Source: a bacterium
GTDB lineage: Bacteria > Patescibacteriota > Andersenbacteria > UBA10190 > CAIZMI01
DNA: 64,000 nucleotides
NCBI GenBank assembly: GCA_030647555.1
Contig: JAUSJG010000027.1
Location: 15,532-79,531 of the forward strand
Direction: 5' to 3'
Part shown: piece after piece, positions 33,112-36,583 of the stretch
Position numbering within the stretch: the stretch's first letter is position 1
How the letters are laid out: every line of letters begins with the position of its first letter
The notes under the pieces: model-generated
The model's database searches: none
What the model saw: the letters and a program-made list of their open reading frames with translations, nothing else
What the model was told of the DNA's origin: nothing
Translations under genes and position numbers: made by a program

Positions 33112-34707
33112 TTAGACCAAACTGCGCAATATACTCATCGCTGTCATTTGCGGGGGTTGTGGAATTTGCATTATTTCCAAGACTGTTGGCCCGATGTCGG
33201 CCAGGCAACCAATTGGGGTGGAGAGCACTTGCATTACCATTTCTTCTTCCTTTGGGGGGTCTTGTTTGTTGTTGGCGGTTATATAAATAACAGGCACAGG
33301 GTTGGCGGTGTGGTCTTTCGAGATTTGGTGTGTGGTTGGATTCAACATCTCCTCGGCATTTCCATGATCGGCGGTGATAAGTACCGCGCCGTCTTTGGCT
33401 ATTGTGACATCAATTATTTTTTTCATTTCCTTATCCAGAAACTGCAATGATTCAACCGTGGCATCGTATTCTCCCGTATGACCAATCATGTCGGGGTTGG
33501 CAAAGTTCATTATGATGAGGTCGTATTTGTCTTTATTGATTTCTTTTACAACATGGTCGGCGATCACCTTCGCGCTCATTTCGGGAGTATCGGAATAATT
33601 TTTAACATTCGGTGAGGGGACCATGACGCGGTCTTCGCCTGGAAAAGATATTTCACGTCCACTGTTAAAATAATATGTGACGTGCGCGTATTTTTCTGTT
33701 TCGGCAATACGGAGCTGTGTTTTTCCGGCATCGGAAACAACACGGCCGGTGGGAAATTCTGCTTGTTCTTCGGGGAAGGCGACTGTAACCGGTAAATCCT
33801 TTTGGTATTCGGACATGGTGACAAATTCCAGGTCCGTCCAGTTTTGCACGGGGAAATCGTTAAAGCCTTTTGTTGTAAAAGCATAAGTCAGTTGGCGAGC
33901 GCGGTCCGGGCGAAAGTTAAAGAAGATAACAGTATCGCCATCTTGGATTTTACGTAACGGTTCGCCGTGTTTGGTAATTACGTAGGCCGTGACAGTTTCG
34001 TCGGTTTCTTTTTTCTCATAAGCGCTTTCGAGCGCATCTTTCCAACTGTCGGTATGTTCGCCAATTCCGTCGGTCAGTAAATCGTATGCGACCTTCGTGC
34101 GGTCCCAATTATTGTTACGGTCCATTGCAAAGTAGCGACCAACGAGAGAAGCGATTCCACCACTTTTTGTGTGATCGATGGCTTCTTGTACTTTTTTCAG
34201 ATACGATCCGGCGCTTATAGCGGGAGTATCACGGCCGTCCAAAAACGCGTGGACAAATGTTCTATTGCTCACTCCTTCTTTTTTTGCGAGTTGTAATATG
34301 GCAAGAAGGTGGTCGACGTGACTGTGTACTCCGCCGTCGCTAACACAACCAATCAGGTGTAACGCGGAATTGGGACGTTCTTTGACGTGATTCGTGGCTG
34401 CTACAAATGCGGGGTTTTTGAAAAAGGATTTATTTTCGATGGACATCGTAATCTGAGGGAGAGGTTGGTAAATGATGCGTCCCGAACCCATGTTTTTGTG
34501 ACCAACCTCGGAATTTCCCGATTCGCCCCACGGTAAACCAACTTCAATCCCTGAAGCTTTTATTACAGCGGATGGATACTCACGTACCCAACGTTCAAAA
34601 TTTTCCATTTTAGCGGCATAAATCGCGTTGCCTTCCTGCAGGAAGGAGATACCAAACCCATCGAGAATCATTAAAACTAACGGTCGAGGAATTTTTATAT
34701 CGGACAT
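33112..34707 (-). CDS. gpmI: 2,3-bisphosphoglycerate-independent phosphoglycerate mutase
   Basis: 531 aa. LVLMILDGFGI N-terminus, metal-binding Asp/His/Ser context, alkaline-phosphatase-like core. Confidence 0.95.
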   Translation of the reverse strand: MSDIKIPRPLVLMILDGFGISFLQEGNAIYAAKMENFERWVREYPSAVIKASGIEVGLPWGESGNSEVGHKNMGSGRIIYQPLPQITMSIENKSFFKNPAFVAATNHVKERPNSALHLIGCVSDGGVHSHVDHLLAILQLAKKEGVSNRTFVHAFLDGRDTPAISAGSYLKKVQEAIDHTKSGGIASLVGRYFAMDRNNNWDRTKVAYDLLTDGIGEHTDSWKDALESAYEKKETDETVTAYVITKHGEPLRKIQDGDTVIFFNFRPDRARQLTYAFTTKGFNDFPVQNWTDLEFVTMSEYQKDLPVTVAFPEEQAEFPTGRVVSDAGKTQLRIAETEKYAHVTYYFNSGREISFPGEDRVMVPSPNVKNYSDTPEMSAKVIADHVVKEINKDKYDLIIMNFANPDMIGHTGEYDATVESLQFLDKEMKKIIDVTIAKDGAVLITADHGNAEEMLNPTTHQISKDHTANPVPVIYITANNKQDPPKEEEMVMQVLSTPIGCLADIGPTVLEIMQIPQPPQMTAMSILRSLV

Positions 34708-34819
34708 GAGTAATAGTATACACTGGGATGGGGGAAGCAGGAATGAAGAGTTTTTACGTTTGACTAACAGTGTCGTTGAGAGTAATCTATTTTCAGCTGA
34801 ATAAGTTCAGCTTTAATGA

Positions 34820-34893
34820 CGCGGGGAAGAGCAGCCCGGTCGCTCGCATGGCTCATAACCATGAGGTCGCAGGTTCGAATCCTGCCCCCGCTA
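34820..34893 (+). tRNA. tRNA(CAU), initiator-like (C1/U72 mismatch, A11:U24)
   Basis: Cloverleaf folded by hand: acceptor cgcgggg/ccccgct, D-stem gagc/gctc, anticodon stem catgg/ccatg with loop ctCATaa, T-arm gcagg-ttcgaat-cctgc, discriminator A. No encoded CCA. Confidence 0.7.
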
Positions 34894-34935
34894 CTATTAC
34901 TAAAAAGACCCCTGTGGGGTCTTTTTAGTAATAGA
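34894..34935. terminator. Perfect hairpin after the tRNA (ctattactaaaaagacccc-tgt-ggggtctttttagtaatag)
   Basis: 19-bp stem read directly. Similar aaaatacccctgtggggtatttt hairpin at 35044-35066. Confidence 0.45.
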
Positions 34936-34940
34936 ATGTG

Positions 34941-35375
34941 TGCAGGATTCGAACGGTTCATATTTTCGTCGCACGAAAACATGAACCGGTGGCCAGAATT
35001 ATGCAATATCAATTGCATAATTCGAGGCCAAATCCTGCCCACAAAATACCCCTGTGGGGTATTTTTATTGTTATGATCGAGTGCAGGATTTGAACGGTAT
35101 CGTTGTTTCGTAAAACAACGATACCGGTGGCCAGAATTATGCAATATCAATTGCATAATTCGAGGCCAAATCCTGCCCCCTGCGTGGCTCGTGTTTTATT
35201 TATAAAATTTCGCAAAGCGAAATGACAATAATGACGAGCGATATCTTCGAACCAATACTATTGGTTCGAAGATATCGCTCGGATTTGAACGCCGGAGCAT
35301 ATTTTGCGAAGCAAAATGCGAGGCGGTGGCCAGAAACTTTCGTGTCAACGAAAGTTTCGAGGCCAAATCCTGCCC
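34941..35375. repeat. Three tandem ~95-100-nt structured elements (34941-35040, 35083-35178, 35281-35375). Conserved scaffold: gcaggatTYgaac-[hairpin1]-ggtggccaga-[hairpin2]-tcgaggccaaatcctgccc. Candidate structured ncRNAs or tRNA-end-derived miniature elements.
   Basis: Scaffold termini pair (gcaggatt/aatcctgc). tggcc/ggcca encloses hairpin 2. Hairpin 1 differs completely in sequence among the three units yet keeps a 13-14-bp stem. Hairpin 2 is aattatgcaat-atca-attgcataatt in units 1-2 but aaactttcg-tgtcaa-cgaaagttt in unit 3 (compensatory changes). The 3' end aatcctgccc equals the 3' T-arm/acceptor of the adjacent tRNA. Confidence 0.6.
35262..35306. repeat. Perfect inverted repeat gagcgatatcttcgaacc-aatactatt-ggttcgaagatatcgctc between structured units 2 and 3
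   Basis: 18-bp stem read directly. Confidence 0.45.
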
Positions 35376-35518
35376 AGCGCGTAAATCAGAAATCGGGAGT
35401 GGAAATCGGAGATGACGTCTTGTCCATTTACAAATGCAAAAAATTTAGTAGTATTACTCTAGTTTGGGAAGTCGGATGGATCCGACCACCGACTATCTGA
35501 TTTCCGATTTCCGCGTTT

Positions 35519-35591
35519 GGCTGGATAGCTCAGCGGTTAGAGCAATGGCATCATAAGCCATGGGTCGCAGGTTCGAATCCTGCTCCAGCTA
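35519..35591 (+). tRNA. tRNA(CAU), elongator-type (Met or Ile2/lysidine)
   Basis: Acceptor ggctgga/tccagct (G1-U72). D-stem gctc/gagc. Anticodon stem atggc/gccat with loop atCATaa. T-arm gcagg-ttcgaat-cctgc identical to the first tRNA. Discriminator A. Confidence 0.75.
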
Positions 35592-35617
35592 CAAATTATT
35601 CGTAGGGTATTTGTACA

Positions 35618-36583
35618 TTGTTCGCAAAACGTACGGATACGGTATATAATAGTAGCATGAGAGCAAAAGTTGTGGAAAAGTCGCGGGCAATTCAATTGCG
35701 TAAAAACGGTTTAAGTGTGAAACAGATTGCTCAAAAATTAAGCGTCAGCAAGGGTAGTGTCAGTCCTTGGGTGAAGCTGGTTGTTGTTCCGAAAGAAAAG
35801 AGAAAAAAGATCCGCGAAAGAATGTTAATGGGCGGAGAGAAGGGGAGAAAGAAAATTTTGCGAGGTTGGGATGAATATCGAATATTGCATCCAAAACCGC
35901 CACCATATGTTAAACCAGTCCGTTTAATTGACACTTTTTTTGACAAGTGGTCGCCCGAAATGGCGTATGTGCTGGGCTATTTTGCAGCGGACGGCTGTAT
36001 GTTTCGAAACAAGCGTGGGTCTTATTATATCGAATTTACCTCCACAGACATTGAGTTGATTGCATGTGTAAAAAGTATTTTGGAATCAACAAACAAACTT
36101 GAACGATACAAGCTTAAAAACCCAAAATATAAAATCAGGTATAATATTCAGCTTGGGAGTAAAAGTGCTTTCTTGTCGCTTAATAAACTTGGTTTAACAC
36201 CAAATAAGAGTTTAATAATCAAGTTTCCAGCTGTGCCTGATGAGTATTTGGGGCATTTTTTGCGTGGTAACCTTGATGGCGACGGCTGTGTTACTTTCAC
36301 AAATTATTTTCGAAAAGACAGGGGAAAAAGATATTTGAGTTTAATGATCCGTTTCACCAGTGGAAGTAGAGTGTTTTTAGTCGGGATGAAAAATAGGATT
36401 GAACAAAAAATACCGAATATCGGTGGAAGTTTGATATTATACACTCCAAGGCACCATGTTTTGGCGTATTGCACGTCAAGTGCTAGACAACTGTATAAGA
36501 TAATGTATCCTAATAAATTAGTGCCCTGTCTAAAGCGTAAACGTGACATTTTTCTTAGGGCATTTGAGATTTTGGACCCGTAG
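35618..36583 (+). CDS. Free-standing double-motif LAGLIDADG homing endonuclease with N-terminal helix-turn-helix domain
   Basis: 321 aa. Motif 1 MAYVLGYFAADGCMF and motif 2 LGHFLRGNLDGDGCV (LAGLIDADG consensus). N-terminal LSVKQIAQKLSVSKGSVSPW HTH-like. Last two codons plus stop overlap the 5' acceptor of tRNA-Asp. Confidence 0.85.
   Translation: MFAKRTDTVYNSSMRAKVVEKSRAIQLRKNGLSVKQIAQKLSVSKGSVSPWVKLVVVPKEKRKKIRERMLMGGEKGRKKILRGWDEYRILHPKPPPYVKPVRLIDTFFDKWSPEMAYVLGYFAADGCMFRNKRGSYYIEFTSTDIELIACVKSILESTNKLERYKLKNPKYKIRYNIQLGSKSAFLSLNKLGLTPNKSLIIKFPAVPDEYLGHFLRGNLDGDGCVTFTNYFRKDRGKRYLSLMIRFTSGSRVFLVGMKNRIEQKIPNIGGSLILYTPRHHVLAYCTSSARQLYKIMYPNKLVPCLKRKRDIFLRAFEILDP

Follow-up and report, generated by a model that had tools for sequence, protein, structure and literature searches.

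Three tandem units of about 100 nt each, all on the + strand, lie 3′ of an initiator-type tRNA(CAU) gene in a 64-kb stretch of DNA from a member of the Patescibacteria (hereafter the window). With a probability of roughly 60% we consider these units to be an uncatalogued structured RNA element of Patescibacteria that resides in tRNA 3′ trailers and resembles the RtT RNA of enterobacteria. They form a new family of a known kind, i.e., the family is new and its kind, RtT-like, is known.

The upstream tRNA(CAU) gene (34820-34894, + strand) is recognized by ARAGORN and by the Rfam tRNA model (55 bits). It is of the initiator type with a C1·A72 mismatch, the 1-72 pair being flagged as non-standard, and it supplied the sequences that were copied into the units. 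A 19-bp perfect hairpin follows at 34894-34934 as an inverted repeat without strand assignment; its core AAAAAGACCCC-TGT-GGGGTCTTTTT appears terminator-like by eye but is not called by the terminator scan. Before unit 1 this hairpin stands where the family has its upstream hairpin P0, and its homologues are found before unit 2 and in the relative L044. Unit 1 (34942-35038, + strand as are all parts of the three units) was delimited by inverted repeats, folding and our covariance model R1 (72.9 bits). It comprises helix P1 (34942-34949 with 35031-35038), the junction CGAA (34950-34953), the P3 hairpin (34954-34988) and P2 (34990-35030), which has the base TGGCC/GGCCA and a distal hairpin at 34996-35023. 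In the spacer between units 1 and 2 inverted and direct repeats outline a terminator-like hairpin on the + strand (35043-35067; 35043-35065 in the terminator scan). Unit 2 (35083-35176; repeats, folding, R1 75.2 bits) contains P1 (35083-35092 with 35167-35176), P3 (35095-35126) and P2 (35128-35168). A 23-bp perfect palindrome (35235-35281, inverted repeat, no strand) abuts unit 3 and is, with its sequence …CCAAT-loop-ATTGG…, the counterpart of the family P0 as compared with P0 of L008, L027, L033, L035 and L036. Unit 3 (35281-35370 with a tail to 35375) reaches the best R1 score among the window units (82 bits) and consists of a reduced P1 (35281-35287 with 35364-35370), P3 (35290-35326) and P2 (35327-35365). 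The array is bounded by a promoter-like site, TTTACA-16-TAGTAT (35427-35454, + strand, promoter/terminator scan), which lies in a sequence block conserved in L044 and belongs to the next tRNA, a second tRNA(CAU) found by ARAGORN and Rfam as a separate gene downstream (35519-35592, + strand). Neighbouring genes encode iPGM, a LAGLIDADG/HTH ORF, DsbA and PheRS. Pattern searches and model R1 reveal this single locus of the element within the window.

An earlier sequence-only reading had proposed three genuine units on a shared scaffold, and coordinates, a 19-mer count and folding all confirm it. GGATTYGAAC, CGGTGGCCAGAA and TTCGAGGCCAAATCCTGCCC are common to the three units, and the window contains exactly three occurrences of the 19-mer TCGAGGCCAAATCCTGCCC against an expectation of zero. 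For units 1 and 2 folding gives a three-way junction of −51 to −60 kcal/mol (z = −9.5 to −10.4; none of 200 shuffles was as stable), the values for unit 1 being z = −9.6 on the + strand and −10.4 on the − strand, and unit 3 adopts the same junction when trimmed to its ends. The shape is thus a three-way junction instead of the cloverleaf that had been suggested. An insert of about 85 nt with the hairpins P3 and P2 is located where the 7-nt T loop of a tRNA would be, and the sequence GGAUUYGAAC…GGUGGCCAG…CGAGGCCAAAUCC linking both hairpins is invariant. The proposed pairing of the scaffold ends holds in full for units 1 and 2 but only in part for unit 3, which starts with ctcGGATTTG and lacks the ‘gca’ of the closing helix, so that its P1 has only 7 bp. 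Similarly, the first hairpin (P3), claimed to be a 13-14-bp stem throughout, is a perfect 14-bp stem in unit 2 only; in unit 1 it comprises 16 bp with one A·C mismatch and in unit 3 it is an interrupted helix of 4 + 2 + 7 bp, which contains GGAGC/GCGAG, the conserved tandem G·A motif of the family. Units 1 and 2 are without this motif and their hairpins are perfect AU-rich palindromes. Their final 56 nt are identical (56/56) and their P3 sequences cannot be aligned, which looks like replacement of a segment rather than drift by point mutation. An extra hairpin precedes each unit, terminator-like before units 1 and 2 and palindromic before unit 3.

That the unit ends derive from a tRNA was already suspected and is supported in every relative, since these ends match the local tRNA each time. 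In the window the 5′ end GCAGGATTCGAAC is the reverse complement (13/13) of the T loop plus the 3′ strand of the T stem of the upstream tRNA, and the 3′ end AATCCTGCCC is a direct copy of the same segment. The 3′ strand of P1 thereby represents a direct tRNA copy beginning at the end of the T loop (T-stem 3′ strand); most relatives extend this copy through the whole acceptor 3′ strand, the discriminator and CCA. On its 5′ side P1 consists of the complement to the copied segment, which equals the T-stem 5′ strand plus 0-4 acceptor pairs; therefore P1 imitates the T-stem/acceptor stack of a tRNA. Both strands track local variants of the T loop, as in L049, where the unit behind a tRNA with the T loop TTCGATC has the inverted repeat CAGGGATCGAAG and the direct repeat GATCCCTGC. 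Like the known tRNA mimics (the YrlA/Y-RNA-like module, the tmRNA domain, minihelices) the units imitate with P1 and tail the T-stem/acceptor part of a specific tRNA, but they possess neither T loop nor D-arm mimic nor complete acceptor helix. Identity of the tail to the tRNA covers 19-25 nt through discriminator and CCA in six independent relatives (L008, L027, L033, L035, L036, L038). The copy is shorter in the window lineage (window, L039, L044) with 9-13 nt, and with 11-13 nt in the three window units, so the full tRNA 3′ end is not required there. Between the orthologues L019 and L038 the tail is conserved beyond neutral expectation (22/22 identical positions versus 52/62 in the trailer, 83/105 in the core and 37/44 in the downstream flank).

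Such tails allow two further interpretations. The unit could be a guide-like RNA with the junction as protein-binding scaffold and the roughly 20-nt tRNA-identical tail as guide, by which a nuclease or recombinase encoded in trans would be led to tRNA genes, in homing or in defence. A scaffold followed by a variable 3′ segment, here with 19-25 nt identical to the adjacent DNA, recalls the layout of transposon-encoded guide RNAs, and the tail is constrained. However, there is no associated nuclease gene, the first 7-12 nt of the putative guide are sequestered in P1 and the window lineage retains a tail of only 9-13 nt. The hairpin arms, which might be taken for guides or spacers as well, have no meaningful match elsewhere in the window. 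Since the tail is just as long as the stretch that separates the T loop from the tRNA end, an explanation by guides is needless, and we rate it as highly improbable. The same low probability is given to scars of integrases at the tRNA gene, with the direct repeats as attL and attR and the core as the leftover arm of a deleted element. A direct repeat starting in the T loop and running to the tRNA 3′ end or a few nucleotides past it is the classic identity block of T-loop-class integrases; att copies can stack, which would fit the tandem arrays at one tRNA, and Salmonella RtT units lie between tRNA-Pro and apparent accessory genes. Nevertheless, no integrase is found nearby, no integrase or cargo gene separates the tRNA from the distal repeat (the units directly adjoin the tRNA, and the whole ‘element’ measures only 140-200 bp) and independent deletion to about 150-180 bp would be required at every locus. 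Moreover, the same core occurs beside many tRNA species while one element family cannot carry the correct 3′ ends of seven different tRNAs, and neither the upstream inverted copy nor the covarying, RNA-like three-way junction has a role in an att site.

Relatives were sought in Patescibacteria genomes and metagenomes by exact-pattern scans, synteny walks and the covariance-model search that the sequence-only reading had recommended. Altogether 16 distinct members were found, in lineages annotated as Uhrbacteria or unclassified Patescibacteria and on unclassified metagenome contigs; in the genome scan 28 of 32 matches were chance hits inside coding regions. Wherever the flanks of a member are readable, a tRNA on the same strand precedes it by 30-75 nt; the species concerned are Arg, Ser(cga), Ser(gga), Lys, His, Tyr, fMet and Met. 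This position in a same-strand 3′ trailer applies to the window and to L008, L027, L033, L035, L036, L038, L042, L044 and L049. The core is of a variant type in L044 and L049. A second repeat with a different core follows tRNA-Ser(tga) in L008 and was discarded, as it gives no convincing fold (z = −1.4).

In the model-based family alignment 84.4% of the cells are paired versus 31-42% when the partners are slid by 1-3 columns, both sides have changed in 29 of 44 pairs, and none of 500 shuffles reached any of five covariation measures. For P1, a helix present in the minimum-energy folds, the share of paired cells is 88.9% and three of its nine pairs changed on both sides, in step with the tRNA. 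In P3 two compensatory pair swaps distinguish L038 from its close relative L041. The structure of the units is under selection, as had been assumed for the window copies. The proof of it comes from the relatives; the window copies by themselves are no such proof because perfect palindromes could arise by DNA-level processes as well. With this covariation and the invariant junction the units are not random debris of tRNA fragments. Hence it is scarcely credible that they are non-functional by-products in the trailer, made up of decaying tRNA fragments and stacked terminators or insulator hairpins. The hairpins between units are indeed terminator-like, P1 of unit 3 is damaged and degenerate remnants occur (L047, L049, the second unit of L039 and a half unit of L041). 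But the junction has an invariant sequence, covariation across lineages involves 29 pairs, P2 and P3 are without U tracts and neither ARAGORN nor the Rfam tRNA model detects a pseudo-tRNA, so this reading is already largely refuted.

The product is likely an RNA made from the tRNA strand, as predicted from GNRA loops, tandem G·A, G·U pairs and folding energy, all of which favour this strand. The loops of the family are GGAA, AGAA or GGGA, the tandem G·A stays non-Watson-Crick in 15 of 15 sequences, and the + strand folds better than the − strand by 3.5-12 kcal/mol in all 11 non-window members; in most members G·U pairs prevail on the + strand (up to 5 versus 1 in L019). The window copies alone show no strandedness: tandem G·A is lost in units 1 and 2, the palindromes are perfect, and unit 1 folds better on the − strand by 4.6 kcal/mol, its sole non-Watson-Crick pair being A·C on the + strand and G·U on the − strand. 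Between tRNA and unit the window and roughly half of the relatives have a good hairpin of the intrinsic-terminator type, and the promoter/terminator scan gives no promoter-like site upstream of any unit; expression would therefore depend on read-through. The possibility of mere terminator arrays, raised earlier, does not apply. No U tract follows P2 or P3 in the terminator scan, in which only two hairpins qualify, 35043-35065 on the + strand and the palindrome preceding unit 3 on the − strand; terminators thus belong to the repeat period and not to the units.

It has to be considered whether the units are DNA elements, i.e., non-autonomous mobile or recombinogenic elements (MITE-like or folded-ssDNA integration sites) at the palindrome of the tRNA T arm, moved in trans by a host or phage recombinase or an HUH nuclease. 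The hairpins would then be DNA structures and the tRNA-end repeats footprints of insertion. In such terms one could understand why the same core is found beside at least seven tRNA species with ends matching each local tRNA, and why presence and copy number differ among close relatives. So L044 and L045 encode an identical iPGM protein next to three and two units, respectively, L051 and L052 have zero units, L047 and L049 have kept remnants, and the copy in L041 is truncated exactly after GGATTTGAAC. Also the wholesale replacement of P3 between units 1 and 2 with the other half identical, the perfect palindromes of the window lineage and the sequence GCGAAGC in unit 3 (a very stable DNA mini-hairpin) would fit. 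As in MITEs, REP/BIME and Correia-type elements, the units are small, hairpin-rich and intergenic, their copy number varies and P1 can be read as terminal inverted repeats of 8-13 bp. Those elements differ, however, as the Patescibacteria units occur strictly in tRNA trailers and in one orientation, and their ‘inverted repeats’ are copies of the neighbouring tRNA gene. Furthermore, no recombinase, integrase or transposase family is common to the neighbourhoods and none is present on the 5.5-kb L037 contig, where the raw ORF translations gave no evident integrase-like ORF. All-against-all BLAST of the neighbouring ORFs of 13 loci yielded no protein partner in cis but only synteny groups. A phage or plasmid origin was discarded, as the two-part pattern gave just two chance coding-sequence matches in viral contigs and phage genomes gave no BLAST match to a unit. 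Duplex or cruciform DNA has no need of GNRA loops, tandem G·A, G·U pairs or the one-strand advantage of 3.5-12 kcal/mol, all of which are signatures of the RNA type. In addition, the left boundary has no conserved terminus, the orthologous tails are conserved beyond neutral expectation and dispersed near-identical copies are missing in the window. Taken together, mobile DNA appears as an unlikely explanation.

Several known types of RNA were rejected. The units are not tRNAs, as already stated in the sequence-only reading: ARAGORN finds only three true tRNAs, none of them in the units, pseudogenes and permuted forms are not detected either, and the Rfam tRNA model has zero matches on the units even at E ≤ 10. 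A tRNA-like fold with the acceptor stem built from the unit 5′ end and the tail works only with CT-rich Ser tails and was dropped because it fails for Arg, Lys and His tails. tmRNA is not detected by ARAGORN or Rfam. YrlA yields a chance-level match (14 bits versus a threshold of 69 bits, E = 9.8) at 34837-34962, which is the tRNA gene plus the start of unit 1. The sX4 match in L008 is the tRNA-Ser of this relative. Curated Rfam models of self-cleaving ribozymes and riboswitches give no match, and by eye the hammerhead core, requiring CUGANGA / GAA / H, is not compatible with the strands YGAA / G / none of the units. Retrons, CRISPR and type III antitoxin arrays can be dismissed as the adjacent genes include no reverse transcriptase, cas gene or toxin, in agreement with the former remark that the units are not CRISPR-like. 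An Rfam match would have removed the novelty, and, the chance-level YrlA match aside, no Rfam family matches the units at E ≤ 10.

The arrangement itself, formerly thought to be undescribed, has a counterpart of the same architecture in the RtT RNA of E. coli and Salmonella (RF00391), located in the trailers of tyrT and tRNA-Pro. Both types are found in a tRNA trailer on the tRNA strand and end in a copy of the tRNA that starts in its T loop, comprising the last 18-19 nt in RtT. In both an upstream complement pairs with this copy and closes a multi-helix domain, the same closing helix being visible in the Rfam consensus structure of RtT. Tail and complement vary with the local tRNA around a constant core, the units form tandem arrays with terminator hairpins in between, and GA-rich helices include tandem G·A. 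The four units of the E. coli tyrT locus start with GGGGAAGGAU, the copy in the tyrT-tyrV spacer with GGGGAAGGGU; they end with AUCCUUCCCCCACCACCA, which represents the final 18 nt of tRNA-Tyr, whereas the end of the spacer copy comprises 19 nt (AAUCC…). These start and end segments are paired in Rfam, and in the annotation rttR has its end at the repeat's CCA. The RtT units behind tRNA-Pro in Salmonella share this core but have the inverted repeat GAGGAT and the tail ATCCTCTATCACCGACCA, with a terminator hairpin between units. The tandem G·A of RtT covaries (PMC7657543), and RtT members adjoin Asn and Lys tRNAs in Pasteurellaceae and are visible on Northern blots (PMC4986893). Release of E. 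coli RtT as a discrete RNA is cited in PMC3318445 and PMC4986893, and RtT is reported to modulate the stringent response.

Despite the common construction no similarity of sequence or profile between RtT and the Patescibacteria units is detectable. RF00391 (gathering threshold 45 bits) has zero matches at E ≤ 10 in positions 34700-35700 of the window and in ten Patescibacteria loci, with the four E. coli units as positive control reaching 133-138 bits; vice versa, model R1 gives no match on the E. coli and Salmonella RtT loci. Also the core folds are different. P1 of the Patescibacteria units opens straight into the three-way junction with its invariant sequence, whereas RtT has a long internal loop and a second helix before the junction, and only RtT retains the T-stem 5′ strand and UUCGA inside the unit. 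Besides the host phylum, the tail of the window lineage differs, having only 9-13 copied nucleotides instead of 18-19.

If the units are RtT-like RNAs, read-through from the tRNA promoter would transcribe them on the tRNA strand and the transcript would fold co-transcriptionally into the three-way junction. The enzymes of tRNA 3′-end maturation may then trim it to a discrete stable RNA, because a unit ends in the helix and 3′ tail of the tRNA itself; the annotated ends of E. coli rttR suggest likewise. Copy number varies among close relatives such as L044 and L045, and arrays like that of the window probably grow and shrink by unequal recombination between the tRNA-derived repeats and the terminator hairpins. 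It is rather doubtful, though conceivable, that RtT-type elements as a whole, i.e., the Patescibacteria family together with enterobacterial RtT, are protein-less selfish elements colonising tRNA genes. A structured core would insert or recombine at the conserved T loop of a duplicated tRNA 3′ segment, inverted and direct copies of the local sequence would be regenerated at each new tRNA, and the element RNA would ride on tRNA transcription and processing. The hypervariable perfect hairpins of the window lineage might then be by-products of a single-stranded or fold-back intermediate.

For annotation the RtT-like family explains the hairpin-rich spacers and spurious ORF calls in tRNA clusters of Patescibacteria. 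Its invariant junction and about 29 covarying pairs make it a clean target for structure determination, it offers a search for a protein or enzyme partner among the processing factors of tRNA ends, and it lets one ask by what route each unit acquires its copy of the local tRNA sequence. RtT RNA has been an orphan for decades, described for a few gamma-proteobacteria and filed in Rfam as cis-regulatory without an established mechanism. The occurrence of a second family, alike in construction but unrelated in sequence, in a distant phylum with reduced genomes suggests that grafting a structured RNA onto a duplicate of a tRNA's T stem and 3′ end is a general, recurrent solution beyond E. coli.

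The array consists of three tandem units on the + strand that are flanked by two tRNA(CAU) genes, one of the initiator type with C1·A72 on the 5' side (34820-34894, +) and a second one on the 3' side (35519-35592). Unit 1 (34942-35038, +), unit 2 (35083-35176, +) and unit 3 (35281-35370, +) have GGATTYGAAC, CGGTGGCCAGAA and TTCGAGGCCAAATCCTGCCC in common, the last of which occurs three times in the 64-kb window with zero occurrences expected. The predicted fold of units 1 and 2 (z ~ -10) is a three-way junction in which helix P1 closes the unit and P3 and P2 are hairpins, P2 having a TGGCC/GGCCA base. After trimming, unit 3 gives the same junction fold, but its P1 has only 7 bp. Units 1 and 2 are identical over P2 and the 3' end (56/56) and unalignable in P3. 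The sequence-only reading had described these three + strand units essentially correctly, apart from three points: the “gca” that it placed at the start of unit 3 is absent there, the 13-14-bp stem assumed for hairpin 1 is an interrupted helix in unit 3, and the additional hairpin 5' of every unit had been missed. In front of units 1 and 2 this hairpin resembles a terminator; in front of unit 3 it is a perfect palindrome of 23 bp. Two open reading frames of the window (34764-35156, -; 35222-35500, +) overlap the array. Called “proteins” of 166-214 amino acids also span the arrays of two related loci (L044, 3364-4008; L045, 3508-4008; locus coordinates), and all those called over the array are almost certainly spurious reading frames generated by the repeats.

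Relatives were searched with an exact two-part pattern in 185,579 species genomes. Among the 32 loci obtained four are true relatives, all on CPR-like contigs, with the labels Patescibacteria (two), Uhrbacteria (one) and Gammaproteobacteria (one, L008); the other 28 are chance matches inside coding sequence. A three-part pattern in metagenomes yielded eight further loci (8/8 true), and syntenic loci were obtained by walking outward from the adjacent iPGM gene. The covariance model R1, built from 14 sequences, recovered 18 copies (16 distinct) with E < 1e-11 and no match beyond these over ~150 kb. The L008 contig carries two perfect units, AT-rich tRNA spacers and a small zinc-ribbon ORF; since the latter two features look Patescibacteria-like, its bin label (“uncultured Gammaproteobacteria”) may be wrong.

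All members with readable flanks lie 30-75 nt 3' of a same-strand tRNA gene, which specifies Arg, Ser(cga), Ser(gga), Lys, His, Tyr, fMet or Met. From the 3' strand of P1 onward the unit directly repeats the local tRNA, beginning with the final T-loop bases, and the P1 5' strand is complementary to the local T loop together with the 3' strand of the T stem. The tRNA at L049 has an unusual T loop, TTCGATC, and the unit behind it starts with CAGGGATCGAAG and ends with GATCCCTGC, so both copies track the local tRNA. The self-complementarity of T stems allows a second, equally valid reading of P1, namely the T stem of the tRNA itself extended by 0-4 acceptor pairs, with the P3-P2 insert in place of the T loop. 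In this sense P1 partially mimics the T-stem/acceptor stack of the tRNA. At six loci (L008, L027, L033, L035, L036 and L038) the identity between tail and tRNA comprises 19-25 nt and includes discriminator and CCA, sometimes with 4-5 nt more. Comparison of the orthologous loci L019 and L038 gives identities of 22/22 in the tail, 52/62 in the trailer, 83/105 in the core and 37/44 in the downstream flank. At ~82% identity a 22/22 tail has a probability of roughly 0.01, so the tail is under constraint in this lineage. The tRNA copy of the window lineage (window, L039, L044) stops after 9-13 nt and only the P1 part is retained. One unit with a tRNA-Ser-type tail (L037, 2250-2345) lacks an intact upstream tRNA; all that precedes it is a 42-nt repeat (CCGCCA plus terminator) and an apparent decayed tRNA 3' end.

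In the model-based alignment standard pairs occupy 84.4% of the cells, as against 31-42% when the partners are slid by 1-3 columns; both-sided change is found at 29 of 44 pairs, and none of 500 shuffles reached any of five pairing measures. Interpretation as inert debris is poorly supported. Invariant positions are concentrated at the junction, P3 contains a tandem G·A (GGAGC…GCGAG) with two adjacent non-Watson-Crick pairs in 15/15 sequences, and distally P2 often consists of a GA-rich helix with a GGAA, AGAA or GGGA cap. The tRNA-carrying strand folds better than its complement by 3.5-12 kcal/mol in all 11 non-window members, in most of which G·U pairs are also commoner on this strand (at most 5 versus 1, in L019). 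This asymmetry in fold energy, the G·U excess, the GNRA loops and the tandem G·A argue for an RNA that is read in the direction of the tRNA. The strand evidence of the window copies is uninformative or contrary: their hairpins are perfect, and the sole mismatch, which lies in unit 1, reads A·C on the + and G·U on the - strand.

The element is a conserved and covarying three-way junction fixed to tRNA trailers, with locally copied ends and variable copy number. Most probably it would be transcribed together with the tRNA on the tRNA strand, and the transcript would fold into the junction and, since the element terminates in a helix and tail taken from the tRNA itself, would be trimmed by the tRNA 3'-end maturation enzymes. 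The terminator-like hairpins between tRNA and unit, the lack of a promoter for the units and the short tails of the window lineage are weak points of this mechanism. Unequal recombination, in which the repeated tRNA-derived segments and the terminator hairpins would be the partners, probably alters the arrays.

L044 and L045 encode an identical iPGM protein and have three versus two units. L052 (iPGM 79% identity) and L051 possess a tRNA-fMet without any unit downstream, L047 and L049 show unit remnants after tRNA-fMet, one copy in L041 ends abruptly exactly after GGATTTGAAC, and L008 has two identical units with a period of 179 bp. L039 shares its 3' flank with window unit 2, but its P2 and P3 helices are wholly different. 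Judged from these copy-number changes, from L039 and from P3 of units 1 and 2, the helices turn over fast while the junction stays fixed. Presence/absence and segment replacement of this kind, together with the spread over many tRNAs and the perfect palindromes, also fit the main rival explanation, a mobile or recombinogenic DNA-level element aimed at the T-arm palindrome, against which stand the RNA-type signatures, the strand asymmetry and the failure to find an enzyme gene nearby. Both readings are compatible and not mutually exclusive. No integrase was found near the units, and integrase scars are poorly supported; the same holds for guide RNAs, and no viral or phage match for the element was found. 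The neighbourhoods of the loci have no protein family in common.

Several observations concern the surroundings. At L052 (1988-2329) a tRNA-Met/tRNA-Asp pair is inverted relative to tRNA-fMet and units are absent, a sign that the array site has been rearranged. The window contains, between the second tRNA(CAU) and tRNA-Asp, a free-standing ORF with HTH_23 and LAGLIDADG_3 domains (35618-36583, +) that is also present in L044 and L045 and absent from L039 and L047, whose two tRNAs are ~50-140 nt apart; this pattern is an insertion polymorphism, as is typical for mobile homing-endonuclease genes. In L008 (1455-1640, +), 5' of tRNA-Arg(gcg), the promoter and the first 13 nt of the tRNA (GTGCCCGTAGCTC) recur as two partial copies. 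Behind each of them come a small hairpin, the D-loop-like motif AGCTGGA and an inverted copy (CTACGGGA), an arrangement that looks like a 5'-side counterpart of the 3'-side units. After tRNA-Ser(tga) of the same contig (630-764, +) there is a repeat of similar outline with a different core, comprising GGATTCGAAC 6 nt past the tRNA, GNRA-capped hairpins and GAAATCC with the full tRNA-Ser 3' end; with its weak fold signal (z = -1.4) it suggests that the unit design reaches beyond the GGTGGCC-core family. Finally, L035 (1589-1800, -) gives a T-box leader match of 71.6 bits (below the 93-bit threshold) that is cut by the contig end and lies directly 5' of tRNA-His (1472-1545), not of an aminoacyl-tRNA synthetase gene.

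Rfam models gave no match to the units at E <= 10, but the architecture is that of RtT RNA (RF00391). The tyrT-tyrV locus of E. coli K-12 has four RtT units that start with GGGGAAGGAU (the spacer copy with GGGGAAGGGU) and end with AUCCUUCCCCCACCACCA, i.e. the 3'-terminal 18 nt of tRNA-Tyr; the spacer copy has 19 nt (AAUCC…). Start and end segments are paired in the Rfam consensus, and the annotated 3' end of rttR is the CCA of the segment copied from tRNA-Tyr. In a Salmonella contig annotated RtT units with the E. coli core follow tRNA-Pro, with GAGGAT at one end, ATCCTCTATCACCGACCA, the end of tRNA-Pro, at the other and a terminator hairpin between units, exactly the layout of the window array. 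For RtT, published work reports an origin in a single repeat unit of the tyrT operon (PMC3318445), a tandem G·A that covaries (PMC7657543) and, in Pasteurellaceae, an occurrence beside Asn and Lys tRNAs together with signals on Northern blots (PMC4986893); its mode of action was described as still unknown (10.1101/2024.07.17.603846). Membership in RF00391 is ruled out because neither RF00391 nor R1 detects the other family and the core folds differ, and the Patescibacteria element is therefore a second family of the same kind. It is a genuine, selected, tRNA-derived and structured element that represents a new family absent from Rfam, of the known RtT-like tRNA-trailer type. This carries the design of a long-known orphan RNA into a distant phylum and provides a well-covarying target for follow-up work.
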